Shown: piece by piece, positions 243 to 18,950 of the stretch
Position numbering within the stretch: position 1 is the first letter of the stretch
Layout: each line of letters starts with the position of its first letter
Assembly (NCBI GenBank): GCA_964628305.1
Contig: CAZVNC010000001.1
Location: 1-31,199, forward strand
DNA: 31,199 bases
Origin: an uncultured Ideonella sp.
Lineage (GTDB): Bacteria; Pseudomonadota; Gammaproteobacteria; Burkholderiales; Burkholderiaceae_C
Reading direction: 5' to 3'
Made by a program: the position numbers and the translations under genes
Notes under the pieces: model-generated
Told to the model about the DNA's origin: nothing
Database searches by the model: none
What the model saw: only the letters and a program-made list of their open reading frames with translations

Positions 243-1430
243 TCAGACGACGACCGGAATTTCGGTCGCAGGCGGCGTGTTGCGGCTGCGGCCGCAGCGC
301 ACGATGCCGTCGATCATCACCATGCCGATGCCGGGAATGTCGCCGAGCTGGACGCTCTCGAGCAGGGTGCGTCCGGCAGTGTGCTGTGCGCGGTCCATGA
401 AGACGAAATCCGCGGCGCGGCCGGGTTCGATCAGGCCGCAGTCGAGCGAGCGCACGCGCGCCGTGTTGCCGGTCGCGAAGCAGAAGGCCTGCTCGGCCGG
501 GATGCCGCCGACGCTCGCCAGCAGCGCGATCACGCGCAGGATGCCGAGCGGCTGCACCCCCGATCCGGCCGGGCCGTCGGTGCCCAGGATGATGCGGTGC
601 GGGCACTTGAGCTGGATCGCCGCGCGCGCGGCCTCGATCGCGACTCTCTCGTTGCCGTTGTGGACGATCTCGATCCCGCGCGTCGACTTCTCGCACAGCT
701 CGCAGACGTGCGCCAGCGGCAGCGATGTGTGGCCGCCGTTGATGTGGCCGATGATGTCGGCGTCGGCTTCGAGCACCACGTCCTTGTCGATCAGCCCCGA
801 GCCGGGGATCGAAGGCCCGCCGGTGTGAATCGTGCTCTGGATGCCGTGCTTGCGCGCCCACGCCACCATGCGCTGCGCTTCCTCGCCGGCCTTGACGGAA
901 CCGAGGCCGACTTCGCCGAGCAGCTTGACACCCGCGTTGGCAAGGTCTTCGAAGTCCTGCTCGACCATGCCCTTCTCGAGCACCGGCGCGCCGGCCAGCA
1001 CCTTCACACCACCGGGACGGAAATTGTCGAACGCGCGCTGCGCGGTGATCGCGAGCGCCTTCAGTCCGACGATGTCCTTCGGGCGGCCCGGCAGGTGCAC
1101 TTCGCCGGCCGAGACCATCGTCGTCACGCCGCCGTTCATCGTCGAGTCGATCCAGCCGAGCTGATTCTGGCGCGGCGTCCAGTCGCCGAACACCGGGTGA
1201 ACGTGGCTGTCGATCAGGCCCGGGCAGACGCAGGTCCCGCGGGCGTCGATCTCCGTGTCGGGCTGCGAGATGTCGCAGTCGGCCTCCTTGCCGACCGCGG
1301 TGATCAGACCCTCGTTGACGACGATCGTGTCGGCTTGCAGGATCGGCTTGTCGATGTCACCCGAGAGCATCAGGCCGATGTTTCGAATCACGACTTTGCC
1401 GGAAGTCGGTGTTGCTGCTGCTTGTGCCAT
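243..1430 (-). CDS. ena: Enamidase-like metal-dependent amidohydrolase (1,4,5,6-tetrahydro-6-oxonicotinate hydrolase)
   Basis: HxH motif (DSHVH) and motifs recalled from E. barkeri enamidase: IG...SGDI..P.LQADTIVV, PRQ, GVTTMxSAG, PGRPKD, LEKG, GEVGLG, HTGGxSIPGS, HINGG, GDIPGI, SRNTPPA. RBS GAGGAG upstream. Sits in an hnr/nicAB context. Confidence 0.85.
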   Translation of the reverse strand: MAQAAATPTSGKVVIRNIGLMLSGDIDKPILQADTIVVNEGLITAVGKEADCDISQPDTEIDARGTCVCPGLIDSHVHPVFGDWTPRQNQLGWIDSTMNGGVTTMVSAGEVHLPGRPKDIVGLKALAITAQRAFDNFRPGGVKVLAGAPVLEKGMVEQDFEDLANAGVKLLGEVGLGSVKAGEEAQRMVAWARKHGIQSTIHTGGPSIPGSGLIDKDVVLEADADIIGHINGGHTSLPLAHVCELCEKSTRGIEIVHNGNERVAIEAARAAIQLKCPHRIILGTDGPAGSGVQPLGILRVIALLASVGGIPAEQAFCFATGNTARVRSLDCGLIEPGRAADFVFMDRAQHTAGRTLLESVQLGDIPGIGMVMIDGIVRCGRSRNTPPATEIPVVV

Positions 1431-1485
1431 GCGTGCGCTCCTCGAGTGCTGAATGGTGGAGAAGGGCGAGCCGGGTGCCGGCCGC

Positions 1486-2190
1486 TCACGAGGCAGTCAT
1501 CGACCGCGCGTCGAGCAAGACAGTGCGCAATACGGACTGCTTGACAAACGCTTCCCAGTGCGCGACGGCCTCGGGATGACCGAGGTCTTCGCCGAGGAAT
1601 GCCGACAGTGTGTAGCGGTTGGACTGGTAGAAGTAGCCCGTCGCCGCGATCAGCAGATAAACGTCGCGCGCCGCCACATCGGCGCGAAAGAGACCCTGGT
1701 CGACGCCGCTGCGCAGAACCTGTCCGACGACGCCGATCGCGGGCGAGGAGTACTCGCCGGCCCGACGCGACTTGCTGATGTGCCGGCCGCGGTGCAGGTT
1801 CTCGCTGTTGAGCAGCGTGACGAATTCGGGGTGCTCGCGGTAGTACGCCATCACGAAGGCGACGATCTCCAGCAGCGACTCGACCGGCCGTTCGTTGTCG
1901 AGTTCGAGCGCTGCCTCGGCCTCGTCGAATCGCCGGTAGGCCTCTTCGAGCACCGCGACGAACAGGCCTTCCTTGCTGCCGAAGTAGTAGTAGATCATCC
2001 GGTCGTAGGACTTGGCCGCCATCGAGATCTTCTCGACGCTGGCGCCGCTCAAGCCATACTTTGCGAAGATCTTCGTCGCCGCGCGCAGCAGGCTGTCGCG
2101 CGTCGCCTGCGCAGCGAGTTCGCGCACGCCCGGCTTGCGCGCCGTGCGCGGCCGGCTGCGTGAAGGACTCCTGGCGCTGCGGGGGGTCAT
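1486..2190 (-). CDS. TetR-family transcriptional regulator (NicS/RutR-like)
   Basis: TetR HTH: LLRAATKIFAKYGLSGASVEKISMAAKSYDRMIYYYFGSKEGLF. Start set at ATG 2190 (MTPRS) because the longer ORF start at 2256 overlaps the ferredoxin gene. Confidence 0.85.
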   Translation of the reverse strand: MTPRSARSPSRSRPRTARKPGVRELAAQATRDSLLRAATKIFAKYGLSGASVEKISMAAKSYDRMIYYYFGSKEGLFVAVLEEAYRRFDEAEAALELDNERPVESLLEIVAFVMAYYREHPEFVTLLNSENLHRGRHISKSRRAGEYSSPAIGVVGQVLRSGVDQGLFRADVAARDVYLLIAATGYFYQSNRYTLSAFLGEDLGHPEAVAHWEAFVKQSVLRTVLLDARSMTAS

Positions 2191-2221
2191 CGCCAAGCGC
2201 TCTAGGTGGTCGACGAAACCA

Positions 2222-2560
2222 TCAGGCCTTGTCGTCAGGCAGCTTGTAGTTGGCAAGCTTGTTCTTCTCGTCCTTCCAGCGATCGACTTCGGGCAGCGGA
2301 TCCTTGCTCGAGGAGAGCACCGGCCATTGCGGCGCGAAGCGCTTGTTGATGGCGAGAAAGACCTCCTGCCCGGCAGGCACGTCTTCCTCGGCGAAGATCG
2401 CCTCGACCGGGCACTCGGGGATGCATACGGCGCAGTCGATGCACTCGTCCGGATCGATGACGAGGAAGTCGGGGCCTTCGTGGAAACAATCGACCGGGCA
2501 GACGTCGACGCAGTCGGTGTATTTGCAAAGGATGCAGCTGTCGGTCACGACATGGGTCAT
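2222..2560 (-). CDS. fdxA: 7Fe ([3Fe-4S]/[4Fe-4S]) ferredoxin, Azotobacter FdI type
   Basis: MTHVVTDSCILCKYTDCVDVCPVDCFHEG...IDPDECIDCAVCIPECPVEAI is the FdxA signature. ATG at 2560 with GAGG upstream; the ORF-track extension to 2656 is unlikely. Confidence 0.92.
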   Translation of the reverse strand: MTHVVTDSCILCKYTDCVDVCPVDCFHEGPDFLVIDPDECIDCAVCIPECPVEAIFAEEDVPAGQEVFLAINKRFAPQWPVLSSSKDPLPEVDRWKDEKNKLANYKLPDDKA

Positions 2561-2642
2561 GCGGGTACCTCGTGGGTGATGAGGAGAGAGGAGAGGTGGC
2601 GAAAAAAACAGTTTGCCAGACGCCGGCGAAGGCGCTAAAGTC

Positions 2643-2686
2643 CACTCCCGGTTCATGGAGTGTTCACAACATCAACGTTAAGTGAA
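2643..2686. promoter_or_regulatory. Inverted repeats in the divergent fdxA/hnr promoter region; candidate TetR operators
   Basis: CACTCC-N8-GGAGTG (2643-2662) and TTCAC-N14-GTGAA (2663-2686) lie in the AT-richer gap between the two divergent operons. Short arms; function inferred only. Confidence 0.35.
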
Positions 2687-2749
2687 TGCTACATCGTCGA
2701 TCGGGTTCGGGCAAGCTGATTCAGCGCCGCAGTCGAAGGGATCTTGGCA

Positions 2750-4354
2750 ATGACGGAACACACGAAGACCGACGGCCTGCCGGGCATGGATGTGCCGCCT
2801 GTGGTGCAGGTGCTCGATCGCGCGCCGCTGCGCAACGAGCGGATGGCGGCCGACAAGGTCGAGTGCAACGCGTGCCCGATCCTGTGCCAGATCAGCCCCG
2901 GCAAGACCGGCGCCTGTGACCGCTATGCGAACGAGGACGGCACCCTCGTGCGGGTCGATCCGGTGCTTCTGCTGCGCCGCACGCTCGGCAAGAACACGCC
3001 GCCGCTGGTCGCGTTCGCGCCGCAGGGCGCGGCCGACACTACGCCCGCGCCGGCCGACTGGGACGGCGATCTGCTGCTCGCCGACGAGGTGTTCGTGACC
3101 GCGGTTGGTTCGTCGACGACCTATCCCGACTACAAGCCGGCGCCGTTCATCGTCGGCTCGAAGGCGGCCGGCGTCGACATGGTCACCGTCGTCACCGAGG
3201 GCATTTTCAGCTACTGCAGCCTGAAGGTGAAGATCGACACCGACCGCTACCTTGGCCCGGAACAGGCCAACGTGCGCTGCAAGGGCGAGGTGGTCGGACA
3301 CGTGACGACGGTCGAATACGGCTCGCAGATGCTGTCGCTCGGCGGCGTTCACCATCTCACCGGCGGCAGCAAGAAGGAAGGGCGCATCACGCTCGAGACG
3401 ATGGAGGCGCTCGGCAACAAGCGGGCGGTCGATCTGACGATCGACGGCGGCTCGCAGGTCGTGGTGCAGGCCGGGCGGGCGCCGATCGTCAACGGCGTCG
3501 AAGAGCAGCGCATGCGCGTCGGCTGCGGTTCCGCGACGATTGGCATCTTCGCGAAGCAGTTCTTCGGTCAGGCCGATGAAGTCGTCGTCGTCGACGATCA
3601 CATCACCGGCGTCCTGACCGAGCATCAGGCCGGGCGCTGCCTCGGGATGCGCCACTCGGGCATCAAGATGCGCGGGCGAAAGTCGACCCCCGGCAGGTAC
3701 TTCCAGGTCGCGAATCCCGGCACCGGCTGGGGCGGGACGGACATCGCCGATCCGCTGTCGATCGTCGATTCCTGGGATCCGAAGACGGCCTGGCCGGGCC
3801 TGCGCCTGCTGATGACGTCGACGACCGGCGAGCATGCGTCGTGGTACGTGCTCGACGAGCAACTCCAGCCGCGAGAGGAAGAGGTGCCGTCCGCGCTGCG
3901 CTCGATCATCGACCGCATTGGCGAGAACTGCGAACCGTCGCTGTGCACGGTGCTATTCCTCGGCGGTGCAGGCGGCAGCCTGCGCGCCGGGGTGACCGAG
4001 AACCCGGTGCTGCTGACGCGCTCGATCAAGCAGGCGCTCGTCAACGTGACCTGCGGCGGCGCGCCGGCCTACGTCTGGCCGGGCGGCGGCATCACGATCA
4101 TGGTCGACGTCATGCGCATGCCCGACAACAGCTTCGGAACGGTGCCGACGCCGGCGATCGTCGCGCCGATCGAGTTCAGCATGACACTCGACGACTTCGG
4201 TGCGCTCGGCGGTCACGTCGACAGCGTACGCACGCTGGAGGAGGTGCTGCGCCACGGCGCGCGCAACAACGACGGCGCGCCGACGGCGCGCCGTTGGGAG
4301 GCGGTCAATCCGGCCAATCCGTGGCCGATCGGCCATGCGCCCTTGCTAGGCTGA
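2750..4354 (+). CDS. hnr: 6-hydroxynicotinate reductase (Fe-S flavoprotein)
   Basis: N-terminal CxxCxxxC...GACDRY, TTYPDYKPAPFIV, VDMVTVVTEGIFSYC, MRVGCGSATIG, DDHITGVLTEH, STPGRYF, AGGSLRAGV and VTCGGAPAYVWPGGGI, as recalled for Hnr. Context with ena and nicAB. ATG 2750 follows GAAGGGA. Confidence 0.85.
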   Translation: MTEHTKTDGLPGMDVPPVVQVLDRAPLRNERMAADKVECNACPILCQISPGKTGACDRYANEDGTLVRVDPVLLLRRTLGKNTPPLVAFAPQGAADTTPAPADWDGDLLLADEVFVTAVGSSTTYPDYKPAPFIVGSKAAGVDMVTVVTEGIFSYCSLKVKIDTDRYLGPEQANVRCKGEVVGHVTTVEYGSQMLSLGGVHHLTGGSKKEGRITLETMEALGNKRAVDLTIDGGSQVVVQAGRAPIVNGVEEQRMRVGCGSATIGIFAKQFFGQADEVVVVDDHITGVLTEHQAGRCLGMRHSGIKMRGRKSTPGRYFQVANPGTGWGGTDIADPLSIVDSWDPKTAWPGLRLLMTSTTGEHASWYVLDEQLQPREEEVPSALRSIIDRIGENCEPSLCTVLFLGGAGGSLRAGVTENPVLLTRSIKQALVNVTCGGAPAYVWPGGGITIMVDVMRMPDNSFGTVPTPAIVAPIEFSMTLDDFGALGGHVDSVRTLEEVLRHGARNNDGAPTARRWEAVNPANPWPIGHAPLLG

Positions 4355-4359
4355 GCGCG

Positions 4360-5268
4360 ATGCCTGCCTGCCAAGCGCGCCTGCCGGATGGGAGGCTGCA
4401 TTTCCAGCACGGTCCGATCGACATCGTGATCGGCGCCGATGGCGATACGCGCGCGATCGAAGCGGCGCACGCGCTGGCGTGGCATCGCTTCGAGGGCGTG
4501 CTGGGCGAGCTCGTCGCCGAACTGCCGTTGCTGCGCAGGCCGATCGACGGCCCGTGCCGGCTGACGGGTCCAATCGCGCGGCGCATGTGGCTCGCGTGCG
4601 AGCCGTACCGCGAGGGCTACATCACGCCGATGGCCGCGGTCGCGGGTGCGGTCGCGCAGGAGTTGATCGCGTGCTACGAGCGCGACGGCATCGAGCGCGC
4701 CTGGGTCAACGACGGCGGCGACATCGCCTGGCACCTGGCGTCGCACCGTTCGCTGCGCGTCGGCCTGTTCGCCGACCTCTCCCGGCTCGACGCAGACCAG
4801 ATCCTGAACGGCATCCGCAGCGACGGCCAACTCGACGTGACGCACGACATGCCGGTGCGCGGCGTCGCGACCAGCGGCTGGCGCGGACGCAGCTTCTCGC
4901 GCGGCATCGCCGACAGCGTCACGGTGCTTGCGCGCACCGCGGCCGAGGCGGACGCTGCGGCGACGGTCATCGCGAATGCGGTCGACGTGAACGATGCGCG
5001 CATCGTTCGCAAGCCGGCCTGCGAACTGAAGGACGACAGCGATCTCGGCGCAATCGCCGTCACGGTCGACGTGCCGCCGCTCGGCGCCGACGTCGCGCGG
5101 CGCGCGCTGGCGGCCGGCGCGCGCTGCGCCGCGGGCCTGCGCGATGCGGGTCGGATCTGGTCTTGCACCCTCGTTTGCCAGGGTCAGGTAACCTACGTCG
5201 GCGAGACGCAGTTCGAGCACGCGGTCGAAGTGCACGCGACACCTGTTCACGCCACAGCGGTGGTTTGA
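4360..5268 (+). CDS. UPF0280-family protein (ApbE-like fold)
   Basis: HFQHGPID, TPMAAVAGAVA, VNDGGDIA, GVATSGWRGRSFSRGIADSVTV, AEADAAATVIAN are typical of UPF0280/ApbE-like proteins. ATG 5 nt after the hnr stop; no signal peptide. Confidence 0.85.
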   Translation: MPACQARLPDGRLHFQHGPIDIVIGADGDTRAIEAAHALAWHRFEGVLGELVAELPLLRRPIDGPCRLTGPIARRMWLACEPYREGYITPMAAVAGAVAQELIACYERDGIERAWVNDGGDIAWHLASHRSLRVGLFADLSRLDADQILNGIRSDGQLDVTHDMPVRGVATSGWRGRSFSRGIADSVTVLARTAAEADAAATVIANAVDVNDARIVRKPACELKDDSDLGAIAVTVDVPPLGADVARRALAAGARCAAGLRDAGRIWSCTLVCQGQVTYVGETQFEHAVEVHATPVHATAVV

Positions 5269-5295
5269 ACCGAAGTCCGAGAGGAGTCCGAGTTG

Positions 5296-5937
5296 ATGAT
5301 CGAAGTTCGACGCGTCCTGACCCAGGTGGAGGAGATCCGCCACGAGTTCGGCCCTGCGCCCGAAGTGCCACTGTTGCGCGGTGCGATCGCGGTCGTGATG
5401 CGTAACCCGTTTGCGGGCCGCTACGAGGCCGACCTCCTGCCGATGATGGAAGCGCTCGAGCCGGTCGGTGTCGACATGGCGCACCGCCTGCGCGCGGCGA
5501 TGGGCATCGCGGTCGAGCGCATCGAGGGCTACGGCAAGGGATCGATCGTCGGCAGTGGCGGCGAACTCGAGCATGGTGCGCTGTGGCACGTGCCGGGCGG
5601 CTATGCGATGCGCGAACTGCTCGGCTGGAAGGGCGATCGCGCCGCGTATGCAAAGGGGCAGGGCGAAGCGAAGAGCGGTCAGCCCGGCAATGCGCTTGCG
5701 ATCGTGCCGTCGACGAAGAAGGTCGGCGCCCCCGGCACGGCGCTCGACGTGCCGCTGACGCACATCAACGCCGCCTATGTGCGCAGCCATTTCGACGCCA
5801 TGGAGGTGCGCGTGCCAGGTGCTCCGGCGGCGGACGAGCTGGTCTTCATCCTCGCGATGAGTACCGGATCGCGAATCCACGCCCGCGTCGGCGGCCTGGC
5901 CGCGAGCGCGATCAAGAACTGGGACGGCCTGCGCTGA
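5296..5937 (+). CDS. AA_synth (DUF1185, chorismate-mutase-like fold) family protein, paralogue 1
   Basis: NPFAGRY, IEGYGKGSIVG..GELEHGA, VPSTKKVG, DVPL.H.NAAYVRSHFDAME. RBS GAGGAG at 5281-5286. Start could be TTG 5293 or ATG 5296. Confidence 0.8.
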   Translation: MIEVRRVLTQVEEIRHEFGPAPEVPLLRGAIAVVMRNPFAGRYEADLLPMMEALEPVGVDMAHRLRAAMGIAVERIEGYGKGSIVGSGGELEHGALWHVPGGYAMRELLGWKGDRAAYAKGQGEAKSGQPGNALAIVPSTKKVGAPGTALDVPLTHINAAYVRSHFDAMEVRVPGAPAADELVFILAMSTGSRIHARVGGLAASAIKNWDGLR

Positions 5938-5978
5938 GCCGCCGGCCTTGTTTCGATACTCGAGCATTGGGGAAGCAC

Positions 5979-6563
5979 ATGTCTGCCAAGATTCGCAAGA
6001 TCGTGGTTCAGGTCGACGAAGTCCGCATCGAGATGGGCCGCCCGGTCGAGCCGCCGACCCGCCGCGCGCTGGCCATGGCGGTAATCGACAACCCCTGCGC
6101 CGGCCGCTACGTCGAGAACCTCGACGAACTCAGCGCCATCGGCGAGGAACTCGGCGGACTGCTCGGCAAGCGCTGCGTCGACGCGCTCGGCATCGCGCCG
6201 GGGCAGGCGCAAAGTTACGGCAAGGCGGCGATCGTCGGTGAAGCGGGCGAGATCGAACACGCCGCCGCCATCCTGCACCCCAAGCTCGGCGCGCCGCTGC
6301 GCGCCGCGGTCGAGAAGGGCGCCGCGCTCGTTCCGTCGAGCAAGAAGCGCGGCGGCCTCGGCACCGCGATCGACGTGCCGCTCGGCCACAAGGACGCGGC
6401 CTTCGTGCGCAGCCATTTCGACGCCATGGAGGCGCGCATCGGCGACGCGCCGCGCGCGAACGAGATCGTCGTCGCGGTCGTCGTCACCGACAGCGGCCGG
6501 CCGCTGGCGCGCGTCGGCGGGCTGAAGGCAAGCGAGATCAAGGGCGAGGACGGCCTGCGTTGA
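5979..6563 (+). CDS. AA_synth (DUF1185) family protein, paralogue 2
   Basis: MSAKIRKIVVQVDE, NPCAGRY, QSYGKAAIVGEAGEIEHAAAILHP, VPSSKKRG, DVPLGHKDAAFVRSHFDAME, GRPLARVGGL. Start at ATG 5979; the ORF-track start at 5583 lies inside the previous gene. Confidence 0.82.
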   Translation: MSAKIRKIVVQVDEVRIEMGRPVEPPTRRALAMAVIDNPCAGRYVENLDELSAIGEELGGLLGKRCVDALGIAPGQAQSYGKAAIVGEAGEIEHAAAILHPKLGAPLRAAVEKGAALVPSSKKRGGLGTAIDVPLGHKDAAFVRSHFDAMEARIGDAPRANEIVVAVVVTDSGRPLARVGGLKASEIKGEDGLR

Positions 6564-6615
6564 GGCAGGCAGTCGATCCGAAGGTTTTTCAACCCACTCC
6601 CACAGGAGACTGACG

Positions 6616-7827
6616 ATGACCCACCGCAGACAGGTTTGGCGCGCCGCCGCCGCATCGATGGCCTTTGCCGTCGTCGGCATGTCGCAGGCGTACGGCGCCG
6701 ACGTGATCAAGATCGGCGAGATCAACAGCTACAAGGCACAGCCGCAGTTCCTCGAGCCCTACAAGAAGGGCATGGAACTCGCCGTCGAGGAGATCAACGC
6801 GGCCGGCGGCATCAACGGCAAGAAGGTCGAACTGATCACGCGCGACGACAACGCCAACCCGGGCGATGCGGTGCGCGCAGCCGAGGAGTTGATCTCGCGC
6901 GAAAAGGTCGACGTGCTGACGGGAACCTTCCTTTCGCACATCGGCCTTGCGGTCACGGACTTTGCCAAACAGAAGAAGACCTTCTTTCTCGCCGCCGAAC
7001 CGCTGACCGACAAGATCGTCTGGGAGGACGGCAACAAGTACACCTACCGTCTGCGCCCCTCCACCTACATGCAGGTCGCGATGCTGGTGCCCGAAGCGGT
7101 GAAGATGAACAAGAAGCGCTGGGCGGTCGTCTACCCGAACTATGAGTACGGGCAATCGGCGGTCGCGACCTTCAAGAAGCTGATGAAGGCGGCTCAGCCC
7201 GATATCGAATTCGTCGCCGAGCAGGCGCCGCCACTGGGCAAGGTCGACGCGGGCAGCGTGGTGCAGGCGCTCGCCGATGCCAAACCCGATGCGATCTTCA
7301 ACGTGCTGTTCGGCGCCGACCTCGCGAAGTTCGTGCGCGAAGGCAATACGCGCGGCCTGTTCAAGGACCGTGAAGTCGTGAGCATGCTGACCGGCGAGCC
7401 CGAGTACCTGGAACCGCTGAAGAACGAGGCACCCAACGGCTGGGTCGTGACTGGCTACCCGTGGTATGGCATCGACATTCCCGAGCACAAGACCTTTCTT
7501 GCGGCCTACCAGGCGAAGTGGAAGGACCATCCGTACCTCGGCTCGATCGTCGGCTACAGCGCGATCAAGTCGCTCGCCGCCGGCATCAAGAAGGCCAATT
7601 CGACGCAGACCGACGCGCTGGTACAGGCCTTCAGCGGACTCGAGGTCGACTCGCCGTTCGGCAAGATCACCTACCGGCCGATCGATCACCAATCGACCAT
7701 GGGCGGCTTCGTCGGCCGCACCAAGAACGTCGACGGCAAGGGCGTGATGGTCGACTACAAGTATCTCGACGGCGCGAAGTACATGCCGTCGGACGCGGAA
7801 GTGAAGAAGATGCGGCCCGCCGACTGA
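6616..7827 (+). CDS. ABC transporter substrate-binding protein, branched-chain amino-acid (LivK-like) family; probable nicotinate-type ligand
   Basis: Signal peptide, IKIGEINSY, EEINAAGGINGKKVELITRDD, YTYRLRPST, PNYEYGQS. RBS AGGAG. Confidence 0.88.
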   Translation: MTHRRQVWRAAAASMAFAVVGMSQAYGADVIKIGEINSYKAQPQFLEPYKKGMELAVEEINAAGGINGKKVELITRDDNANPGDAVRAAEELISREKVDVLTGTFLSHIGLAVTDFAKQKKTFFLAAEPLTDKIVWEDGNKYTYRLRPSTYMQVAMLVPEAVKMNKKRWAVVYPNYEYGQSAVATFKKLMKAAQPDIEFVAEQAPPLGKVDAGSVVQALADAKPDAIFNVLFGADLAKFVREGNTRGLFKDREVVSMLTGEPEYLEPLKNEAPNGWVVTGYPWYGIDIPEHKTFLAAYQAKWKDHPYLGSIVGYSAIKSLAAGIKKANSTQTDALVQAFSGLEVDSPFGKITYRPIDHQSTMGGFVGRTKNVDGKGVMVDYKYLDGAKYMPSDAEVKKMRPAD

Positions 7828-7836
7828 TTCTGCGTT

Positions 7837-7922
7837 GCTTCGATCGACATGGGCGCGTGCCCCACGGCACGTGCCCCATTCGATCCGCGCGCCATCGAAG
7901 CCGGTGGGCTGCAAAGCCCGCC
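7837..7922 (+). other. Intercistronic stem-loops downstream of the binding-protein gene (candidate mRNA-stabilising element)
   Basis: GGGCGCGTGCC-CCAC-GGCACGTGCCC (7851-7876), flanked by GCTTCGAT/ATCGAAGC (7837-7844, 7894-7901), then GGTGGGCT-GCAA-AGCCCGCC (7903-7922) with a GNRA loop. Confidence 0.5.
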
Positions 7923-7968
7923 CTGAGCGATTTCCGGTTCCCTCGAACCCGCAACCGCAGGTCCCGTC

Positions 7969-9861
7969 ATGAGCTTCTCCGGTCTCATCGTTCAGCTTCT
8001 CAACGGCCTGGCGGGCGCCTCGTCGTTGTTCATGGTGGGCGCCGGGTTGTCGCTGATCTTCGGCGTGACCCGGATCGTCAACTTCGCCCACGGATCGTTC
8101 TACATGGTAGGCATCTACGTTGCCTATTCGCTCGTCGAACGCTTCAGCAGCGGCTTCGGCTTCTGGCCGGCGCTGCTGCTCGCGGCGGTTGTCGTCGGCG
8201 TGCTCGGCGCGCTGATCGAGATCGTGCTGCTGCGCCGCATCTATCGCGCGCCCGAGCTTTTCCAGTTGCTCGCGACGTTTGCGCTCGTGCTTGTCTTCAA
8301 GGACGCGGTGCTCTGGTATTGGGGGCCCGAGGAACTGCTCGGGCCGCGCGCGCCGGGCCTGTCGGGATCGGTCATGATCCTCGGGCGCCAGTTCCCGTCC
8401 TACGACCTGCTGCTCATCTTCGTCGGCCCGATCGTCCTCGGCCTGCTCTGGCTGCTGCTCACGCGCACCCGCTGGGGCACGCTGGTGCGCGCCGCGACGC
8501 AGGACCGCGAGATGGTCGCCGCACTCGGCGTCAACCAGGCGTGGCTGTTCACGGCGGTGTTCGCGCTCGGCGCGATGCTCGCCGGACTCGGCGGCGCGCT
8601 GCAACTGCCGCGCGAACCGGCCAATCTCGAACTCGACCTGCAGATCATCGGTGGCGCATTCGTCGTCGTCGTCGTCGGCGGCATGGGATCGATTCCGGGC
8701 GCCTTCGTCGCCGCGCTGCTGATTGCGGAGCTGAAGGCGATCTGCATCTGGCTCGGCCTGGTCGATGTGCTGGGCGTCAGCGTCTCGTTCTCCAAGCTGA
8801 CATTGGTTGTCGAGTTTCTCGTCATGGCAGTCGTCCTGGTGTGGCGCCCATGGGGATTGATGGGGCGTGAGCAAGCGCCGAGCCGGCATGTCGGCCCGGT
8901 CGAGGCGCCGCTTCGTCCGGCCGACAACCTGTTCAAGGCGGGCGCCGCGATCCTGCTGCTGGCGCTCGTCGTGACGCCGCTGCTGACTGCCGACTCGCCG
9001 TATACGACGGTGCTGATCATCGACCTGCTGATCGCCGCGCTGTTCGCGACAAGCCTGCACTTCATCATGGGCCCCGGGGGCATGCATTCGTTCGGCCACG
9101 CCGCCTATTTCGGGCTCGGTGCGTACGGCGCGGCGCTGCTGCTGCGGGCGCTGCCGATGGAGCTGGCGCTGATCCTCGCGCCGGTCGTCGGCGCCCTTGG
9201 CGCAGTGCTCTTCGGCTGGTTCTGCGTGCGCCTGTCGGGGGTCTATCTCGCGATGCTGACGCTCGCCTTCGCGCAGATCGCGTGGGCGATCGTCTATCAA
9301 TGGGACAGCTTCACCGGCGGCAGCAACGGCATCACCGGAGTCTGGCCAGCGTCGTGGCTGACGGGAGGCAGCAGCTACTACTACCTGACGCTCGTGCTGG
9401 TCGTCGGCTCGATGCTGCTGCTGCGGCGCGCGCTGTTCTCGCCGTTCGGCTATGCGATGCGCGCCGGCCGCGATTCGCCGCTGCGCGCCGACGCGATCGG
9501 TATCGACGTCAAGCGCAACCAGTGGATCGCGTTCACGATCGCGGGTCTTTTTGCCGGGCTGGCCGGGGCGCTGTTCGCGTTCTCGAAGGGCAGCATTTCG
9601 CCCGAAGGGCTGTACGTCAGCAAGTCGATCGACGGCCTGGTGATGGTGCTGCTCGGCGGCTTGCAGACGCTTTCGGGCGGTGCGGTCGGTGCGGTTGTCT
9701 TCACCTGGCTGCACGACACCGTCGCCCGCAATACCGAGTACTGGCGGGCGATGCTGGGCGCGATCATCCTGATTCTGGTGCTGCTCTTTCCGCAGGGGAT
9801 CGCCGGCTTCCTGCGTCAGATCGTCTACGGCCAGCGTGAAGCGAAGGGAGGGCAGCCATGA
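7969..9861 (+). CDS. Fused ABC permease (LivH + LivM domains)
   Basis: N-half has GLSLIFGVTRIVNFAHG and GGMGSIPGA (LivH-like). C-half has GMHSFGHAAYFGLGAY, YLAMLTLAFAQ and TGGSNGI (LivM-like). One continuous 630-aa hydrophobic ORF. Confidence 0.88.
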   Translation: MSFSGLIVQLLNGLAGASSLFMVGAGLSLIFGVTRIVNFAHGSFYMVGIYVAYSLVERFSSGFGFWPALLLAAVVVGVLGALIEIVLLRRIYRAPELFQLLATFALVLVFKDAVLWYWGPEELLGPRAPGLSGSVMILGRQFPSYDLLLIFVGPIVLGLLWLLLTRTRWGTLVRAATQDREMVAALGVNQAWLFTAVFALGAMLAGLGGALQLPREPANLELDLQIIGGAFVVVVVGGMGSIPGAFVAALLIAELKAICIWLGLVDVLGVSVSFSKLTLVVEFLVMAVVLVWRPWGLMGREQAPSRHVGPVEAPLRPADNLFKAGAAILLLALVVTPLLTADSPYTTVLIIDLLIAALFATSLHFIMGPGGMHSFGHAAYFGLGAYGAALLLRALPMELALILAPVVGALGAVLFGWFCVRLSGVYLAMLTLAFAQIAWAIVYQWDSFTGGSNGITGVWPASWLTGGSSYYYLTLVLVVGSMLLLRRALFSPFGYAMRAGRDSPLRADAIGIDVKRNQWIAFTIAGLFAGLAGALFAFSKGSISPEGLYVSKSIDGLVMVLLGGLQTLSGGAVGAVVFTWLHDTVARNTEYWRAMLGAIILILVLLFPQGIAGFLRQIVYGQREAKGGQP

Positions 9862-10640
9862 GCCTGCTCGAGGTGCGCGGTCTGGGCAAGTCCTTCGGCG
9901 GCAACAGGGCGGTGGACGGGGTCGACTTCAGGCTCGAAGCGGGTGAACTGCTGGCCCTGATCGGACCGAACGGCGCCGGCAAGTCGACGACCTTCAACAT
10001 GGTCAACGGCCAGTTGCGCGCCGATTCCGGCTCGATCCTGCTCGACGGCAAGGAACTCATCGGCCTGCGGCCGCGCCAGATCTGGCAGCTCGGGGTCGGG
10101 CGCACTTTCCAGATCGCCGCCACGTTCGCGTCGCTGACGGTCGTCGAGAACGTGCAGATGGCGCTGATCTCCGCCGACCGCAAGCTGTACTCGATGTGGC
10201 GGCCGGCAGCCGCGCACAAGCGTCTGGAGGCGATCGAGTTGTTGGCCCAGGTGGGGATGTCCGAACAGGCCGATCGGCCGTGCAGCGTGCTCGCCTACGG
10301 CGACGTGAAAAGGGTCGAGCTGGCAATCGCGATGGCGAACCAGCCCAAGCTGCTGCTGATGGACGAGCCGACGGCCGGGATGGCGCCCAAGGAGCGCAAC
10401 GAACTGATGGCGCTGACCAAGAAGCTCGTCGTCGAGCGCAACATCGGCGTGCTCTTCACCGAGCACAGCATGGACGTTGTCTTCGCCTACGCCGATCGCA
10501 TGATCGTCCTGGCCCGCGGGCGACTGATCGCCGAAGGCAAGCCGCTCGAGATTCGCGATCACCCGAAGGTGCAGGAGGTCTACTTCGGCTCCGGCAAGAC
10601 CTTCGAGAAGGAAGCGGCGGGCGCAGGAGCGCCAGCATGA
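9858..10640 (+). CDS. ABC ATP-binding protein (LivG-like)
   Basis: Walker A GPNGAGKST, LLLMDEPTAG, TEHSM. ATGA overlap with the permease stop. Confidence 0.92.
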   Translation: MSLLEVRGLGKSFGGNRAVDGVDFRLEAGELLALIGPNGAGKSTTFNMVNGQLRADSGSILLDGKELIGLRPRQIWQLGVGRTFQIAATFASLTVVENVQMALISADRKLYSMWRPAAAHKRLEAIELLAQVGMSEQADRPCSVLAYGDVKRVELAIAMANQPKLLLMDEPTAGMAPKERNELMALTKKLVVERNIGVLFTEHSMDVVFAYADRMIVLARGRLIAEGKPLEIRDHPKVQEVYFGSGKTFEKEAAGAGAPA

Positions 10641-11386
10641 GCGCAGCGACGAAGGCCGCCGAGCAGCCGTTGCTCGAGGTGATCGATCTCGCGGCCTGGT
10701 ATGGCGCGGCGCAGATCCTGTTCCAGGTCGACGTCGAGGTGCGGCGCGGCGAAGTCGTCGCGCTGATGGGGCGCAACGGCGCCGGCAAGTCGACGACCCT
10801 GAAGGCGATCATGGGTTTGCTCGACAAGTACAAGGGCACGATGAGCTTCATGGGGCGCGACATCTCGACCAGCGACCCGCACGACGTGGCGTCGCACGGG
10901 CTCGGCTACGTACCCGAAGACCGCCGCATCTTCACCGACCTCACGGTGCTCGAGAACCTCGAGGTCGGCCGGCAGGACGCCCGCCAGTGGCCGGACGGGT
11001 CGCCGGCGCCGCTGTGGACGGCCGAGCGCCTGTTCAAGCTGTTCCCGAATCTCGGCGAGATGCCGAATCGTCCCGGCGGCAGCATGAGCGGCGGCGAGCA
11101 GCAGATGCTGACCGTGGCACGAACGCTGATGGGCAACCCCTTTCTCGTGCTGCTCGACGAGCCGTCCGAAGGCGTCGCGCCTGTCATTGTCGAGCAGATG
11201 GCGCACATGATCCAGGAGTTGAAGACGCAGGGCGTGAGCATCTTGCTGTCCGAGCAGAACATGCACTTTGCCGAACTCGTTTCCGATCGCGCCTACGTGC
11301 TCGAGAAGGGCCAGATCCGGTTCAAGGGCACGATGGCGGAACTCGCTGCCGCCGAGGATGTGCGGCGCGCCTACCTGAGTGTCTGA
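10637..11386 (+). CDS. ABC ATP-binding protein (LivF-like)
   Basis: GRNGAGKST, signature MSGGEQQML, LLDEPSEG, SEQN. ATGA overlap at 10637-10640. Confidence 0.92.
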   Translation: MSAATKAAEQPLLEVIDLAAWYGAAQILFQVDVEVRRGEVVALMGRNGAGKSTTLKAIMGLLDKYKGTMSFMGRDISTSDPHDVASHGLGYVPEDRRIFTDLTVLENLEVGRQDARQWPDGSPAPLWTAERLFKLFPNLGEMPNRPGGSMSGGEQQMLTVARTLMGNPFLVLLDEPSEGVAPVIVEQMAHMIQELKTQGVSILLSEQNMHFAELVSDRAYVLEKGQIRFKGTMAELAAAEDVRRAYLSV

Positions 11387-11930
11387 CGCAGGGGCCTTGG
11401 CGCCGGTGCGGCTGAAGGAATCCGTGTCCGCCACCATGCCCGCGCTCGTCGAGACGAAGCTCGTCGTGAACGGCAAGCCGCAGGCCCTGTCGTGTCTGCC
11501 CGGCACGACGCTGCTCACCGCGCTGCGCAATGACCTGTGCCTGAACGGCCCGAAGTACGGTTGCGGTCTGGGCGAGTGCGGCGCCTGCACCGTGCTCGTC
11601 GACGGCGTCGCGGCGCGCGCCTGCGTGATTCCGCTCGCCGGCGTTGCCGGCCGCTCGGTGACGACGCTCGAAGGGCTGGCTGACGAACGCGGACTGCATC
11701 CGGTGCAGAAGGCCTTCATCGACGCCCAGGCCGCGCAATGCGGTTATTGCCTGAACGGCATGCTGATGATGACGGTCGCGCTGCTCGCGCGCACGCCGCA
11801 GCCGACCGAGCAGCAGGTGCGCCAGGCGCTGTCGGCGAATCTCTGCCGTTGCGGCACGCACGTCGAGATCATCGCTGCCGCGCTGCGGGCGGCCGAATTG
11901 ACCGCGCGTGCGGCGAAAGGATCGGCGTGA
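11379..11930 (+). CDS. nicA: Nicotinate dehydrogenase small [2Fe-2S]x2 subunit (NicA-like)
   Basis: GPKYGCGLGECGACTV, AQCGYC and NLCRCGT xanthine-oxidase-family Fe-S motifs; directly upstream of a NicB-like gene. Start uncertain (GTG 11379 or ATG 11436). Confidence 0.8.
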   Translation: MSDAGALAPVRLKESVSATMPALVETKLVVNGKPQALSCLPGTTLLTALRNDLCLNGPKYGCGLGECGACTVLVDGVAARACVIPLAGVAGRSVTTLEGLADERGLHPVQKAFIDAQAAQCGYCLNGMLMMTVALLARTPQPTEQQVRQALSANLCRCGTHVEIIAAALRAAELTARAAKGSA

Positions 11931-14900
11931 GCGCCGCGCGCATGCTGCGTACGCGGCGCGACTTCCTGCAGGCCTCCGGCGCGCTCGTCGTGATGCGCGA
12001 GCCGCCCGAGGCGCAGCCGCAGGCGCCGGGCCAGCCGCCGATGATCCCGCCCAATCCGGACGAGGGCGTCGAGATCCTGCTTGCGGTCTGGGACGACGGC
12101 CGGGTCACGGGGCTCAACGGCCACGTCGACCTCGGCACCGGCATCCGCACCGCGCTCGCGCAGATCATCGCCGAGGAACTCGATGTCGAACCGGGGCAGG
12201 TGGACATGGTGCTCGGCGACACCGCGATGGCGCCGAACCAGGGGCCGACGATCGCGAGCGCGTCGATCCAGATCACCGCCGTGCCGCTGCGCCAGGCGGC
12301 GGCGCAGGCGCGTGCGTTCCTGCTCGCGCGCGCCGCCGACGCGCTTGGCGCCGCAGCGGCCGAACTCGTCGTCGAACGCGGCGTCATCAACCACGGGCAG
12401 CGCCACATCGGCTACGCCGATCTGGTGCGCGGCGAGCGGCTGCATCTGATGCTCGACCCCGAGATCGCTGTCAAGCCGGTGCAGCAGTACCGGGTCGTCG
12501 GCCAGTCGGCGCCGCGCGTCGACATTGCGGCGAAGGTCGCCGGCGAACTCGTCTTCGTGCACGACAAGCGGCTGCCCGGCATGCTGCACGGGCGCGTCGT
12601 GCGCCCGCCGTATGCCGGCGCGGACCACGGCGACTTCATCGGCAACACGCTCGAATCGGTCGATGAATCCTCGATCGCGCACATCCCGGGGGTGCGCGCC
12701 GTGGTCGTGATCCGGGACTTCGTCGGCGTCGTCGCCGAGCGCGAAGAGCAGGCCGAGGCCGCCGCGCTTGCACTGAAGGTGGTCTGGCGCGCGTGGCCCG
12801 GGTTTCCGTCGCTCGACGATCCGGCCCGCGCCTTGCGCGACAACCCGGCGGTTGCGCGCCAGGTGGTCGACGACGGCGATGTGGATGCGGCGCTTTCGAC
12901 CGCGGCGCACGCATTGCACCGCGAATACGTCTGGCCCTACCAGATGCACGCCTCGATCGGCCCGTCGTGCGGCGTCGCGCAGTGGCATGGCGGCGATTCG
13001 CATCCGGCGCTGACGGTCTGGACCGGAAGCCAGAACCCGCACGTGCTGCGCGCCGACCTGTCGAAGTTGATGCAACTGCCCGACGTCGATGTCGAGGTCA
13101 TCCGGATGGAGGCCTCCGGCTGCTACGGCCGCAACAGCGCCGACGACGTCTGCGCCGATGCCGCGCTGCTGTCGCGCGCGGTGCGGGCCCCGGTTCGCGT
13201 GCAACTGAGCCGCGAGCAGGAGAACCTCTGGGAGCCGAAGGGCGCGGCGCAACTGATGACGGTGCGCGGCGCACTCGACGCTGGCGGGGCGATGGCGGCC
13301 TATGACTTCGCGACCTCGTACCCGTCGAACGCGGCGCCGACGCTGGCATTGCTGCTGACGCGCACGATCGAGCCGCTGGCGCAGGCGTTCGCGATGGGCG
13401 ACCGCACCGCGCGGCCGCCGTATGAAGTGCCCAATCTGCGCGTCACGATCAACGACATGGCGCCGATTCTTCGCGCGTCGTGGCTGCGCGGCGTGTCGGC
13501 GCTGCCGAACTCGTTCGCCCACGAGTCCTATGTCGACGAGCTGGCGACTGCGGCGGGCGTCGATCCGGTCCAGTTCCGGCTGCGCCATCTGACGGACCCG
13601 CGCGCGATCGACGTGCTGCGCAGCACCGCCGAACGTGCCGGCTGGGTGGCGCACACCGGCCCGCAACAAATGGAGTCGAGCGGCGACCGGCTGCGCGGGC
13701 AGGGCGTCGCGTACGCGCGCTACATGCACAGCAAGTGGCCGGGGTTCGGCGCCGCGTGGACGGCCTGGGTCGCCGACGTCGAGGTCGATCGCAACACCGG
13801 CGAGGTGCACGTCAGCCGGATCGTCGTCGGCCACGATTCGGGGCAGGTCGTCAACCCGGCCGGCGTGCGCCACCAGGTGCAGGGCAACGTCGTGCAGACG
13901 ACGAGCCGCGCGCTGAAGGAGCGCGTGGAGGTCGATCCGGCGACCTCGGCGATCGTCAATCGCGAGTGGGGCAGCTACCCGATCCTCGGTTTCGCTGATC
14001 TGCCGACGATCGAGGTCCACATCATGCCGCGCCAGAGCGAGCCGCCGCTCGGTGCCGGCGAGTCGTCGTCGGTGCCGGGCACGGCGGCGATCGCGAACGC
14101 GATCTTCGATGCGACCGGGGTGCGATTTCGCCATCCGCCGTTCACTGCCGAGGTCGTCCGGGCGGCAATCAACCCGTTGCCTGCGCCGGCGGCGCCGCCG
14201 GTGGAAGCCGTCGGCCATCCGACGCCGGCCGATGCGTCATGGCCGCGGCGGCGGTCCTGGTGGGCGAAGGGCCTGGCGCTCGCGGCAAGCGTCGCCGGTG
14301 TCGCGGCGGCGGCCTTCGGTTGGAGGCCGGCGATCGCGCCGGTGTCGCGCATCGACACCTCGGTCTACGCTGCTGACGCGATCGAGCGCGGCCGGGTGCT
14401 CGCCGCGGCCGGCAACTGCGCGACCTGCCACACGGCGCCCGGCGGTGCGGTCAACGCCGGCGGCCTCGCGATGCCGACGCCGTTCGGCACCGTCTACTCG
14501 ACGAACCTGACGCCCGACGCCGACACCGGCATCGGCGCCTGGTCGTTCAGCGCGTTCCAGCGCGCGATGCGCGAAGGCGTCTCGCGCGACGGCCATCTGC
14601 TGTACCCCGCGTTTCCGTACACCGCGTTCGCGAAGGTGAGCGACGACGATCTGATGGCGCTCTACGCGTATCTGATGGTGCAGCCCGCGGTGCGCGCTGC
14701 GGTGCCCGAGACAAAGCTTGCATTCCCGTTCGGCATGCGTCCGCTGCTGGCGTTCTGGAATGCCTTGTTCCACGACCCGAAGGCGGTTGCGCAGACCGAC
14801 CCGGTGCGCTCTGCACAGTGGAACCGCGGCGCCTACCTCGTCGACGGGCTCGGGCACTGCGGCGCCTGCCACACCGAGCGCAACGCGTTTGGCGCCGAGC

Positions 14901-15553
14901 GCGAAGGCAAGGCGTATCTCGGCGGCGCGTTCGTCAAGGGCTGGGAGGCACCGGCGCTCACGTCGGCGACGCGCGCCCCGGTGCCGTGGACCGAGCAGTC
15001 GCTGTTCGACTACCTGCGCGTCGGGCACAGCGCGCTGCACGGCGTCGCGTCCGGCCCGATGGCGCCGGTGGTGCGCGAGTTCTCCGCGCTGCCCGACGCC
15101 GACATCCGCGCGATGGCGCACTACCTGGCGTCGTTCAACCCGCCGCTGACAGACGCGCAGGCGGCGAGTGCAGCGGCGGCCGCGGTGGCGACGGCGCAGG
15201 CCGGTGCGGCGATGCTTGCCGGACCGGCGCAGCGCATGTTCGATACGGCGTGCGCCGGCTGCCACCACGACGGCGACGGCCCGCAATTGCTCGGCGCGAA
15301 CGTGCCGCTCGCGTTGAACAGCAACCTGCACGCGGACCGCCCCGACAATCTGCTGCGCGTGATCCTCGAAGGGCACCTCGAGCCGGCGTCGATCGAACTC
15401 GGCTTCATGCCGGCCTTTGGCGCGGCCTACAGCGACCGCCAGCTTGCTGAGTTGGCCGACTTCATGCGCCAGCGCTTCGCGCCCGGCAAGCCGCGCTGGA
15501 CGAATCTGGAGGCCGAGGTGGCGCGGGTGCGCGCCGCGCCGTCCAATCCGTGA
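11927..15553 (+). CDS. nicB: Nicotinate dehydrogenase large subunit (NicB-like): molybdopterin-binding domains, a transmembrane helix and three c-type cytochrome sites
   Basis: GHVDLGTGIRTALAQ, QGPTIASAS, SGCYGRN, ASWLRGVSALPN and GAGE, then a hydrophobic helix (WWAKGLALAASVAGVAAAAFGW) and three CxxCH motifs (CATCH, CGACH, CAGCH). This is the architecture known for P. putida NicB. GTGA overlap with nicA at 11927-11930. Confidence 0.82.
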   Translation: MSAARMLRTRRDFLQASGALVVMREPPEAQPQAPGQPPMIPPNPDEGVEILLAVWDDGRVTGLNGHVDLGTGIRTALAQIIAEELDVEPGQVDMVLGDTAMAPNQGPTIASASIQITAVPLRQAAAQARAFLLARAADALGAAAAELVVERGVINHGQRHIGYADLVRGERLHLMLDPEIAVKPVQQYRVVGQSAPRVDIAAKVAGELVFVHDKRLPGMLHGRVVRPPYAGADHGDFIGNTLESVDESSIAHIPGVRAVVVIRDFVGVVAEREEQAEAAALALKVVWRAWPGFPSLDDPARALRDNPAVARQVVDDGDVDAALSTAAHALHREYVWPYQMHASIGPSCGVAQWHGGDSHPALTVWTGSQNPHVLRADLSKLMQLPDVDVEVIRMEASGCYGRNSADDVCADAALLSRAVRAPVRVQLSREQENLWEPKGAAQLMTVRGALDAGGAMAAYDFATSYPSNAAPTLALLLTRTIEPLAQAFAMGDRTARPPYEVPNLRVTINDMAPILRASWLRGVSALPNSFAHESYVDELATAAGVDPVQFRLRHLTDPRAIDVLRSTAERAGWVAHTGPQQMESSGDRLRGQGVAYARYMHSKWPGFGAAWTAWVADVEVDRNTGEVHVSRIVVGHDSGQVVNPAGVRHQVQGNVVQTTSRALKERVEVDPATSAIVNREWGSYPILGFADLPTIEVHIMPRQSEPPLGAGESSSVPGTAAIANAIFDATGVRFRHPPFTAEVVRAAINPLPAPAAPPVEAVGHPTPADASWPRRRSWWAKGLALAASVAGVAAAAFGWRPAIAPVSRIDTSVYAADAIERGRVLAAAGNCATCHTAPGGAVNAGGLAMPTPFGTVYSTNLTPDADTGIGAWSFSAFQRAMREGVSRDGHLLYPAFPYTAFAKVSDDDLMALYAYLMVQPAVRAAVPETKLAFPFGMRPLLAFWNALFHDPKAVAQTDPVRSAQWNRGAYLVDGLGHCGACHTERNAFGAEREGKAYLGGAFVKGWEAPALTSATRAPVPWTEQSLFDYLRVGHSALHGVASGPMAPVVREFSALPDADIRAMAHYLASFNPPLTDAQAASAAAAAVATAQAGAAMLAGPAQRMFDTACAGCHHDGDGPQLLGANVPLALNSNLHADRPDNLLRVILEGHLEPASIELGFMPAFGAAYSDRQLAELADFMRQRFAPGKPRWTNLEAEVARVRAAPSNP

Positions 15554-15556
15554 CCG

Positions 15557-18775: not shown

Positions 18776-18950
18776 CGCAGAGACTCCTTCAAACTGAGGT
18801 GGTACGCGCCACGCGTGTTCGCAGCGCCCGAATCGAGGTGCCGGATTCGCAGTAGATGACGCCGATCAGGTGGGTGCTCGACGCCATCTGCGGTCTTCTT
18901 GCCGAAGACTGCCGACAATGGATGTTCGGGGAATGTCCCAAGTTCGTGAC

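Follow-up and report, generated by a model that had tools for sequence, protein, structure and literature searches.

Nicotinate is a plant root exudate, and the proteobacterial type of gene cluster for its degradation was reportedly first noted by Alhapel et al. in 2006. This cluster type has been drawn for A. caulinodans ORS571 (AZC_2790-2804), B. japonicum USDA110 (blr3818-3830), R. palustris HaA2 and strain SG-6C (PMC3511419). Common to the Azorhizobium, Bradyrhizobium and SG-6C clusters are a hydroxylase, a homologue of 6-hydroxynicotinate reductase (Hnr), an enamidase (Ena), an ABC transporter and conserved unknown proteins (PMC3511419), and the physiological route of the Azorhizobium type runs via a tetrahydro-oxo intermediate to glutarate. 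Here we describe a stretch of 31,199 nucleotides from an uncultured Ideonella sp. (the window), which is the whole of contig C1 (CAZVNC010000001.1) of a metagenome-assembled genome (GCA_964628305.1; 3.25 Mb in 705 contigs, 72% complete), and in which positions 243-16483 quite probably form one regulated unit for oxygenase-free nicotinate breakdown of the Azorhizobium/Bradyrhizobiaceae cluster type. This type is already described and well conserved, as the first-pass annotation of the window had held of the upper pathway, and the window is a typical example of it. What is added here are testable hypotheses, in which a UPF0280 protein is tied to Hnr and the DUF1185 (AA_synth, PF06684) proteins to the enamidase step, while an MSDH-type aldehyde dehydrogenase provides a clue to the lower route.

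The hybrid design that had been read from the sequence, namely a cytochrome c-linked NicAB together with a ferredoxin-type Hnr and an enamidase, is real and is conserved in relatives. Its hydroxylase has the same two-component architecture as that of the nic cluster of P. putida KT2440, with a [2Fe-2S] subunit and a molybdopterin subunit carrying three cytochrome c domains, an architecture that was reportedly described for KT2440 by Jimenez in 2008. By contrast, the E. barkeri hydroxylase is a four-subunit selenium enzyme. Past 6-hydroxynicotinate the route departs from the maleamate pathway of KT2440, being reductive and hydrolytic with no O2 as substrate, and genes for the NicC monooxygenase, the NicX dioxygenase, NicD, NicF and NicE are missing from the window. 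Instead, Hnr and the enamidase are homologous to those of E. barkeri (the Hnr of the proteobacterial strain SG-6C is 42% identical to E. barkeri Hnr; PMC3511419), although Hnr of the window has no fused 2x[4Fe-4S] domain and the E. barkeri genes hgd, hmd, mgm, mii, dmd and dml are not found in the window. Compared with the Azorhizobium type, the cluster is betaproteobacterial, has a TetR rather than a MarR-type regulator, encodes its own FdxA and carries two DUF1185 paralogues (AAS1 and AAS2), where a Bradyrhizobium-like genome (G097) has one.

The genes of the window (G+C content 64-72%) were chosen by third-position G+C and then checked against Pfam, NCBIfam and PDB, and all of its sizeable open reading frames (ORFs) were scanned against Pfam for the pathway domains. 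The nicA/nicB, hnr, ena, ferredoxin, TetR and ABC importer genes that the first-pass annotation had placed between 243 and 15553 were all recovered there by such matches, but its gene list had left off the UPF0280 gene and the two PF06684 genes. The Pfam domains expected of the aerobic maleamate genes (nicC, X, D, F, E) are found in no ORF of the window, and neither are those of hgd, hmd, mgm and mii, the lower-pathway genes of E. barkeri; both sets had been noted as absent. Elsewhere in the genome, the best match to Hgd is only 27% identical in what is an incomplete assembly, and PF02073, which we take to be the family of NicX, gave no match in this genome or in four relatives in a search that had no positive control for PF02073. 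Since the genome is 72% complete, absences from it carry little weight.

The order ena-tetR-(fdxA)-hnr-UPF0280-AAS1-AAS2-importer-nicA(-nicB) is kept in the 80 Burkholderiales species returned by an Hnr search of species-representative genomes, among them species of Polaromonas, Variovorax, Acidovorax, Ottowia, Xenophilus, Methylibium, Caldimonas and other genera, and the cluster core is also found in alphaproteobacteria and in distant sediment contigs. The tetR gene lies between ena and hnr in 70 of the 80 loci and the importer gene order is kept in about 60, whereas fdxA is present in only 14; within the genus of the window Hnr is patchy (4 of 14 genomes). Wherever the available sequence extends that far, nicA or nicAB is clustered with hnr and ena in the 80 species, so that the reductive, oxygenase-free route is most likely the one used there. 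In Methylibium sp. NZG and in most alphaproteobacterial copies NicAB is replaced by a three-subunit CoxSML-like hydroxylase. Past ena, the 80 loci continue with unrelated housekeeping genes (MetH, glycosyltransferases and similar) and show no conserved catabolic gene, which marks ena as the boundary of the cluster.

In the route that we propose from homology and context, the Tat-exported NicAB with its three haem c groups would hydroxylate nicotinate to 6-hydroxynicotinate with water and hand the electrons to the respiratory chain, Hnr would reduce 6-hydroxynicotinate to 6-oxo-tetrahydronicotinate, and the enamidase would open the ring to yield 2-formylglutarate and ammonium. The Liv-type ABC importer would take up nicotinate or periplasmic 6-hydroxynicotinate, FdxA would supply electrons to Hnr, UPF0280 would install the covalent flavin of Hnr, and the DUF1185 proteins would act together with the enamidase or on its product. 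The remaining carbon would reach glutaryl-CoA or glutarate via enzymes encoded elsewhere, for which the candidates are an MSDH-type aldehyde dehydrogenase, or a decarboxylase and an aldehyde dehydrogenase, followed by a CoA-transferase and glutaryl-CoA dehydrogenase. The earlier proposal that the fate of 2-formylglutarate depends on uncharacterised genes or on genes elsewhere thus holds, with the DUF1185 genes inside the span already annotated and further genes outside it.

The link between UPF0280 and Hnr comes from phylogenetic profiles, for which 393 Pseudomonadota genomes of high quality were sampled. Hnr is present in 28 of them, and this UPF0280 subfamily in exactly the same 28, always adjacent to hnr; this exact co-occurrence and adjacency indicate that UPF0280 is an obligate companion of Hnr and serves it. 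The protein of the window reaches 385 bits against NF003322 (cut-off 290), while its match to the ApbE model of Pfam is 17 bits only (cut-off 25.6). A role of UPF0280 as cofactor-attachment helper of Hnr, most likely installing the covalent flavin, is plausible, although the ApbE similarity stays below the threshold. Within the Hnr family C41, C44, C48 and C58 are invariant and may bind the [2Fe-2S] centre, and C261 in a GCGSA motif is near-invariant. The window Hnr reads GCGSAT at this site, but the Thr is not conserved in the family (the ApbE-type acceptor is Dxx[ST]GA[ST]), so that C261, and not the variable residue that follows the motif, would be the candidate site of the covalent flavin.

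The enamidase of the window aligns with its E. barkeri counterpart (PDB 2VUN; E 9.9e-109, residues 11-390 against 2-381), keeps the N-terminal HxH metal motif (DSHVHP aligned to DTHVHV of 2VUN) and is encoded 1.3 kb from hnr. Enamidase orthologues of at least 61% identity occur in 15 of the Hnr-positive genomes among the 393, and AAS2-type genes of at least 66% identity in exactly these 15, on the same contig. The Ena-plus and Ena-less states alternate within three families (f58, f65, f71), and AAS2 tracks Ena each time. Two genomes (G217, G301) have aas1-aas2-ena on one contig and hnr-UPF0280 on another, and in three others, in which no Hnr was found (G303, L205; G339, L206; G379, L207), an AA_synth gene lies directly upstream of a gene for an enamidase-like amidohydrolase with 41-42% identity; this pair may act on another cyclic amide. 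The co-occurrence with Ena, the separate contigs and the Hnr-free pairs together argue that DUF1185 belongs with ring opening or its product and not with Hnr. In the distant sediment operons AA_synth is 58-69% identical to AAS2, as against 41-45% for Hnr and 45-52% for Ena.

AAS1 and AAS2 have about 50 invariant positions in common, with a high share of Arg, Lys, His, Glu and Asp, and AAS2 is the orthologue of SPO0826 (PDB 2QTP, E 1e-85). SPO0826 adopts the Bacillus chorismate-mutase fold in a hexameric variant whose dimer interface holds a conserved cavity, and a role in amino-acid metabolism was guessed for it from its branched-chain-type ABC neighbours SPO0822-0825 (PMC2954203). As these neighbours correspond in type and position to the Liv-type importer of the nicotinate clusters, the name "Amino acid synthesis" of PF06684 probably goes back to a misreading. 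A Foldseek search of PDB with AAS2 returned only the two DUF1185 structures. The fold neighbours of AAS2 outside DUF1185 are Rid/YjgF proteins (Z 7.0, 6.4, 5.1, 5.0, 4.8, down to 4.4) and chorismate mutase (Z 5.8), in agreement with the published DUF1185 fold, and no sequence similarity was found between DUF1185 and Rid/YjgF. A working analogy for Ena and DUF1185 is RutB/RutC, an amidohydrolase and a Rid-family protein acting around 3-aminoacrylate, where a ring-derived amide gives an enamine and then a malonate-semialdehyde-type product; RutC is itself among the neighbours (Z 4.8), although DUF1185 has no sequence relationship with it and represents a hexameric form of the fold (PMC2954203). 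By this analogy the most likely role of the DUF1185 pair would be that of a Rid-like hydrolase of enamines or imines, or of a tautomerase, with 2-(aminomethylene)glutarate or 2-formylglutarate as the substrate; a 2-formylglutarate decarboxylase is the main, less likely alternative.

For the lower pathway, which had been called genetically unresolved, nothing was found in the window, nothing is conserved beside the cluster in the 80 Burkholderiales species, and a search of the literature revealed no genetic resolution. A clue comes from the anaerobe-type operons on distant low-G+C sediment contigs, which encode a TRAP transporter, an aldehyde dehydrogenase, a three-subunit hydroxylase, ena, hnr, UPF0280 and one AA_synth protein. 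The aldehyde dehydrogenase lies within the operon in 20 such metagenome loci (e.g. L112:573-2087, L127-L129, L165), scores 461.5 bits against TIGR01722 (MMSDH; cut-off 448.5) and has MSDH enzymes as all of its ten best PDB matches (1T90, E 4e-115; next enzyme class 1e-68), which places it in the CoA-acylating MmsA/IolA family, of which the window encodes no member. It carries GAKNH at the position where hydrolytic aldehyde dehydrogenases have ELGGK. Since 2-formylglutarate is a 2-substituted malonate semialdehyde, an MSDH-type enzyme would give glutaryl-CoA and CO2 directly. Four anaerobe-type loci have an Hgd-like reductase instead of, or besides, the MSDH-family enzyme. In the genome of the window and in five relatives no MSDH gene lies beside the cluster, and those that occur at other places in these genomes are all of the ordinary kind. 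By ORF sizes and N-termini, no acyl-CoA dehydrogenase is evident beside the four inspected family III CoA-transferase genes of the own genome, in which glutaryl-CoA dehydrogenase itself was not searched; a 391-amino-acid candidate for it in G066 has no PDB match.

A variant of the cluster does without the enamidase. Among the Hnr-positive genomes, 13 have none at a cut-off of E 1e-30, and in five of these, complete alphaproteobacterial genomes, none was found at E 1e-10 either (G371, L199/L200; G157, L189/L190; G422, L195/L196; G066, L203/L204; G247, L191/L192). All five clusters encode a molybdenum hydroxylase, Hnr and UPF0280. In G066, G371 and G422 an AAS1-like gene accompanies hnr and the UPF0280 gene and a hydantoinase A homologue lies nearby, G247 has the hydantoinase and no AA_synth match, and G157 has the AAS1-like gene and no hydantoinase within 20 kb. 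The G371 cluster also includes hydantoinase B and a family III CoA-transferase. Ring opening of the lactam in the Ena-less variant may be the work of an ATP-dependent lactamase. NAPRTase is encoded in the G157 and G422 clusters, and a nicotinamidase-like isochorismatase in that of G157.

A more far-reaching reading, tentative and with worse than even chances, is one in which DUF1185 is the enzyme that partners ring-opening amidohydrolases, as enamine hydrolase, tautomerase or decarboxylase, and the first to be genetically assigned to a step after ring opening in the Azorhizobium route, and in which this UPF0280 subfamily is a cytoplasmic flavin-attachment factor of Hnr. If it is true, two structurally solved families gain their first roles from this cluster type, and the addition of an MSDH-type enzyme would complete an O2-independent route from nicotinate to glutaryl-CoA. 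Several points weigh against the route and the gene roles proposed above. The E. barkeri enamidase reportedly performs both hydrolytic steps alone (Alhapel et al., 2006), and the Rid-like fold scores of AAS2 are middling by the scale of the tool itself. UPF0280 has no conserved Thr/Ser acceptor to which it could transfer flavin, given that the residue after GCGSA varies and Cys261 is the conserved one. A few distant clusters (L094-L102) have hnr and ena but lack AA_synth, or lack UPF0280, within the 6-21 kb of sequence available. The lower pathway is deduced from other lineages, whereas the only MSDH gene found in the own genome is an ordinary one, truncated at a contig end. Furthermore, five gammaproteobacterial genomes gave only split NicB relatives of 31-46% identity, and the likeness to KT2440 NicB is one of architecture.

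The co-occurrence of AA_synth with the ring-opening enzyme, and not with Hnr, would also suit a second assignment, by which the DUF1185 pair supplies the 2-formylglutarate decarboxylase that the Azorhizobium route has lacked; its product, glutarate semialdehyde, would then be oxidised to glutarate by an aldehyde dehydrogenase of the housekeeping kind. DUF1185 has numerous Arg, Lys, His, Glu and Asp residues that are invariant and suit a dicarboxylate, decarboxylation is said to follow right after ring opening (Kitts, 1992), and in G196 AA_synth lies near MSDH-like and HIBADH-like genes. However, in the anaerobe-type operons AA_synth occurs together with an enzyme of the MSDH family, which itself carries out decarboxylation, in four loci it occurs with an Hgd-like reductase, which would need 2-formylglutarate intact, and no decarboxylase fold was detected for AAS2, so that we regard this assignment as a serious but rather improbable competitor. 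The conserved order of hnr, UPF0280 and AA_synth, which extends from Burkholderiales to the distant anaerobe-type contigs, and the persistence of AA_synth next to hnr in Ena-less clusters would fit another view, in which Hnr has UPF0280 and both DUF1185 proteins as its subunits or assembly factors and none of them plays a role past ring opening. This is unlikely in the light of G217 and G301, whose AAS2-type genes stand beside ena with hnr on a different contig, of the three genomes with AA_synth and enamidase-like pairs in which Hnr was not found, and of G247, where hnr and UPF0280 are present and AA_synth gave no match.

Two further explanations concern the surroundings and the substrate of the cluster, and both are very improbable. 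The genes at 17057-31199 directly adjoin the nicotinate operon and comprise a thiamine diphosphate enzyme, a DUF2848 protein, an amidase, a PreA-like reductase with a Fer4 domain, a TRAP transporter, a MarR regulator and a CoxL/M/S(+CoxG) molybdenum hydroxylase; an oxo-acid is a conceivable substrate for the thiamine diphosphate enzyme and for the DUF2848 protein, and the block might on that account be the lower pathway for 2-formylglutarate. With a hydroxylase, a ring reductase, an amidase, a transporter and a MarR regulator of its own, it looks instead like a parallel upper pathway for another substrate, and none of its genes is present past eamA in a genome of the same genus (G009), which keeps eamA after nicB and carries none of the genes of the window from 16487 onward, or in any of the 80 related loci. 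It was therefore rejected as a lower pathway and is regarded as a separate heterocycle-type module, whose synteny with the nicotinate cluster does not extend to relatives. Just as improbable is that the cluster acts mainly on another substrate, such as external 6-hydroxynicotinate or a substituted nicotinate, with NicAB as a general heterocycle or aldehyde dehydrogenase. The IorB-type molybdenum enzymes with cytochrome c partners include aldehyde dehydrogenases, with only the split versions in the five gammaproteobacterial genomes. Yet two non-homologous hydroxylase types, NicAB and CoxSML-like, alternate at the same position of the cluster, NAPRTase and nicotinamidase genes adjoin related clusters, and a nicAB knock-out in Pseudorhodoferax has the phenotype expected for nicotinate (PMC13510662). 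The assignment of DUF1185 to ring opening or its product and of UPF0280 to Hnr is retained as the preferred one, and the co-occurrence patterns behind it name specific genes to knock out for the steps after ring opening, for which genetics have been lacking since the physiology of 1992.

Table 1. Features of the nicotinate cluster in the window, with the basis of each assignment.
Feature	Position	Strand	Basis
ena, enamidase (6-oxo-1,4,5,6-tetrahydronicotinate amidohydrolase)	243-1430	-	PDB 2VUN full-length match; Pfam Amidohydro_1
tetR, TetR-family regulator (TetR_N + TetR_C_29)	1486-2190	-	Pfam; ORF open to 2256, ATG at 2190 likely start
fdxA, 7Fe-type ferredoxin	2222-2560	-	NF045490 FdxA_Protbact; ATG at 2560
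Divergent control region, fdxA-hnr spacer, 189 nucleotides	2561-2749	.	Promoter-like site and conserved motif
hnr, 6-hydroxynicotinate reductase, short form	2750-4354	+	Homologue names
UPF0280, ApbE-like protein	4360-5268	+	NF003322
AAS1, AA_synth/DUF1185 paralogue 1, insertion of about 27 amino acids	5293-5937	+	PF06684 E 2e-66; alignment
AAS2, AA_synth/DUF1185 paralogue 2, enamidase-linked type	5979-6563	+	PF06684 E 2e-72; PDB 2QTP
Binding protein of Liv-type ABC importer	6616-7827	+	Pfam Peripla_BP_6
Fused permease of Liv-type ABC importer	7969-9861	+	Pfam BPD_transp_2
Two ATPases of Liv-type ABC importer	9858-10640, 10637-11386	+	Pfam ABC_tran
nicA, small [2Fe-2S] subunit of nicotinate hydroxylase	11436-11930	+	Pfam Fer2 + Fer2_2
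nicB, molybdopterin subunit with three fused cytochrome c domains	11942-15553	+	MoCoBD_1/2, Cytochrom_C, Cytochrome_CBB3
eamA-family transporter	15557-16483	+	Pfam EamA

The plus-strand gene junctions are short or overlapping (Table 1), except for about 140 nucleotides between the binding-protein and permease genes of the importer, and the enzyme-encoding part of the hnr operon ends with nicA and nicB. The start of eamA lies 3 nucleotides past the end of nicB, and eamA, which is found at the matching position in G009 with 85% identity, is probably the last gene of the operon; EamA genes also occur near anaerobe-type clusters. NicA has two [2Fe-2S] domains (Fer2, Fer2_2), and NicB combines molybdopterin domains with CxxCH motifs at residues 828, 975 and 1106 and has no FAD subunit. 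The N-terminus of NicB is Tat-like with an RRDFL motif, which together with the three haem c motifs points to a periplasmic location. That NicAB hydroxylates nicotinate, as had been assumed, is supported in a related genus: a nicAB deletion in Pseudorhodoferax A332 abolished the formation of 6-hydroxynicotinate and impaired growth on nicotinate, and 6-hydroxynicotinate is also made by isolates of Methylibium, Roseateles, Caldimonas and Rhizobacter (PMC13510662). Early on, more than 80% of the 6-hydroxynicotinate is extracellular (PMC13510662), which fits a periplasmic NicB, and the importer may consequently take up 6-hydroxynicotinate. The compound has been reported to prime plant immunity (PMC13510662), and in the pathway scheme of the same study, according to its legend, the nic cluster is paired with the aerobic Pseudomonas pathway (PMC13510662).

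Hnr of the window has more than 8000 close homologues, many of which are named 6-hydroxynicotinate reductase in their source, and an exhaustive profile search returned 840 relatives at E 1e-10 or better; it matches no Pfam or NCBIfam model and no PDB sequence. Its AlphaFold model has a pLDDT of 79 with a core above 90. Searched against PDB as an undivided model, it gave nothing at E 0.001 or better with Foldseek, and VIA-align, with the model not split into domains, gave a best Z of 4.1 that covers a small barrel only. Distant full-length Hnr forms (31-40% identical) begin with a 2x[4Fe-4S] ferredoxin domain, which is missing from the window Hnr, and the stand-alone FdxA may stand in for the ferredoxin domain fused to the anaerobe Hnr. 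FdxA, which scores 158 bits against NF045490 (cut-off 135) with a match that begins at residue 33 of the long ORF, is likely the electron donor to Hnr; two more fdxA paralogues are present elsewhere in the own genome. Two long Hnr forms of about 1000 amino acids (P0129, P0137) carry a GltD-like module (Fer4_20 + Pyr_redox_2) as a fusion, an arrangement suggestive of variants driven by NAD(P)H, and ORFs of similar length occur at L098:8492-11497 and L104:1404-4382. In the complete genome G066 Hnr is split into two overlapping matches (G066:C1:2969820-2971258), possibly a frameshift or a pseudogene.

In the divergent control region a promoter scan gave one promoter-like site (2613-2641, plus strand), which is no more than chance for a region of this length. 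The motif AATGCTACA lies at 2685-2693, between this site and the hnr start, and 68 of 79 loci carry it or near variants upstream of hnr. In Variovorax a perfect palindrome, CTACATTGA-N3-TCAATGTAG, is located upstream of hnr, and no inverted repeat was detected in the control region of the window itself. From its conservation and position, AATGCTACA is probably a TetR operator or part of the promoter. A scan of five relatives for the Variovorax palindrome returned only the nic sites and one further site beside an apparent insertion-sequence transposase, which is likely due to chance. For TetR itself no informative solved relative was found.

Some further genes were observed at related loci. The anaerobe-type locus L102 (1340-5175, 12809-13615) encodes Hnr and Ena without UPF0280 and AA_synth within 19 kb, and is flanked by genes for a 2-oxoacid:ferredoxin oxidoreductase and GltD-like proteins, with an aspartate-dehydrogenase-like gene after ena. 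A conserved protein of 458-498 amino acids with no Pfam match (L200:2039-3415 in G371, with homologues in G054, G157 and G422) is encoded in these clusters beside a second Liv-type importer. Finally, the own genome (G000) carries on contig C160 (4805-5398) a homologue, 52% identical, of the isochorismatase-family gene that adjoins the G157 cluster; its product may be a nicotinamidase, which could feed nicotinamide into the pathway.

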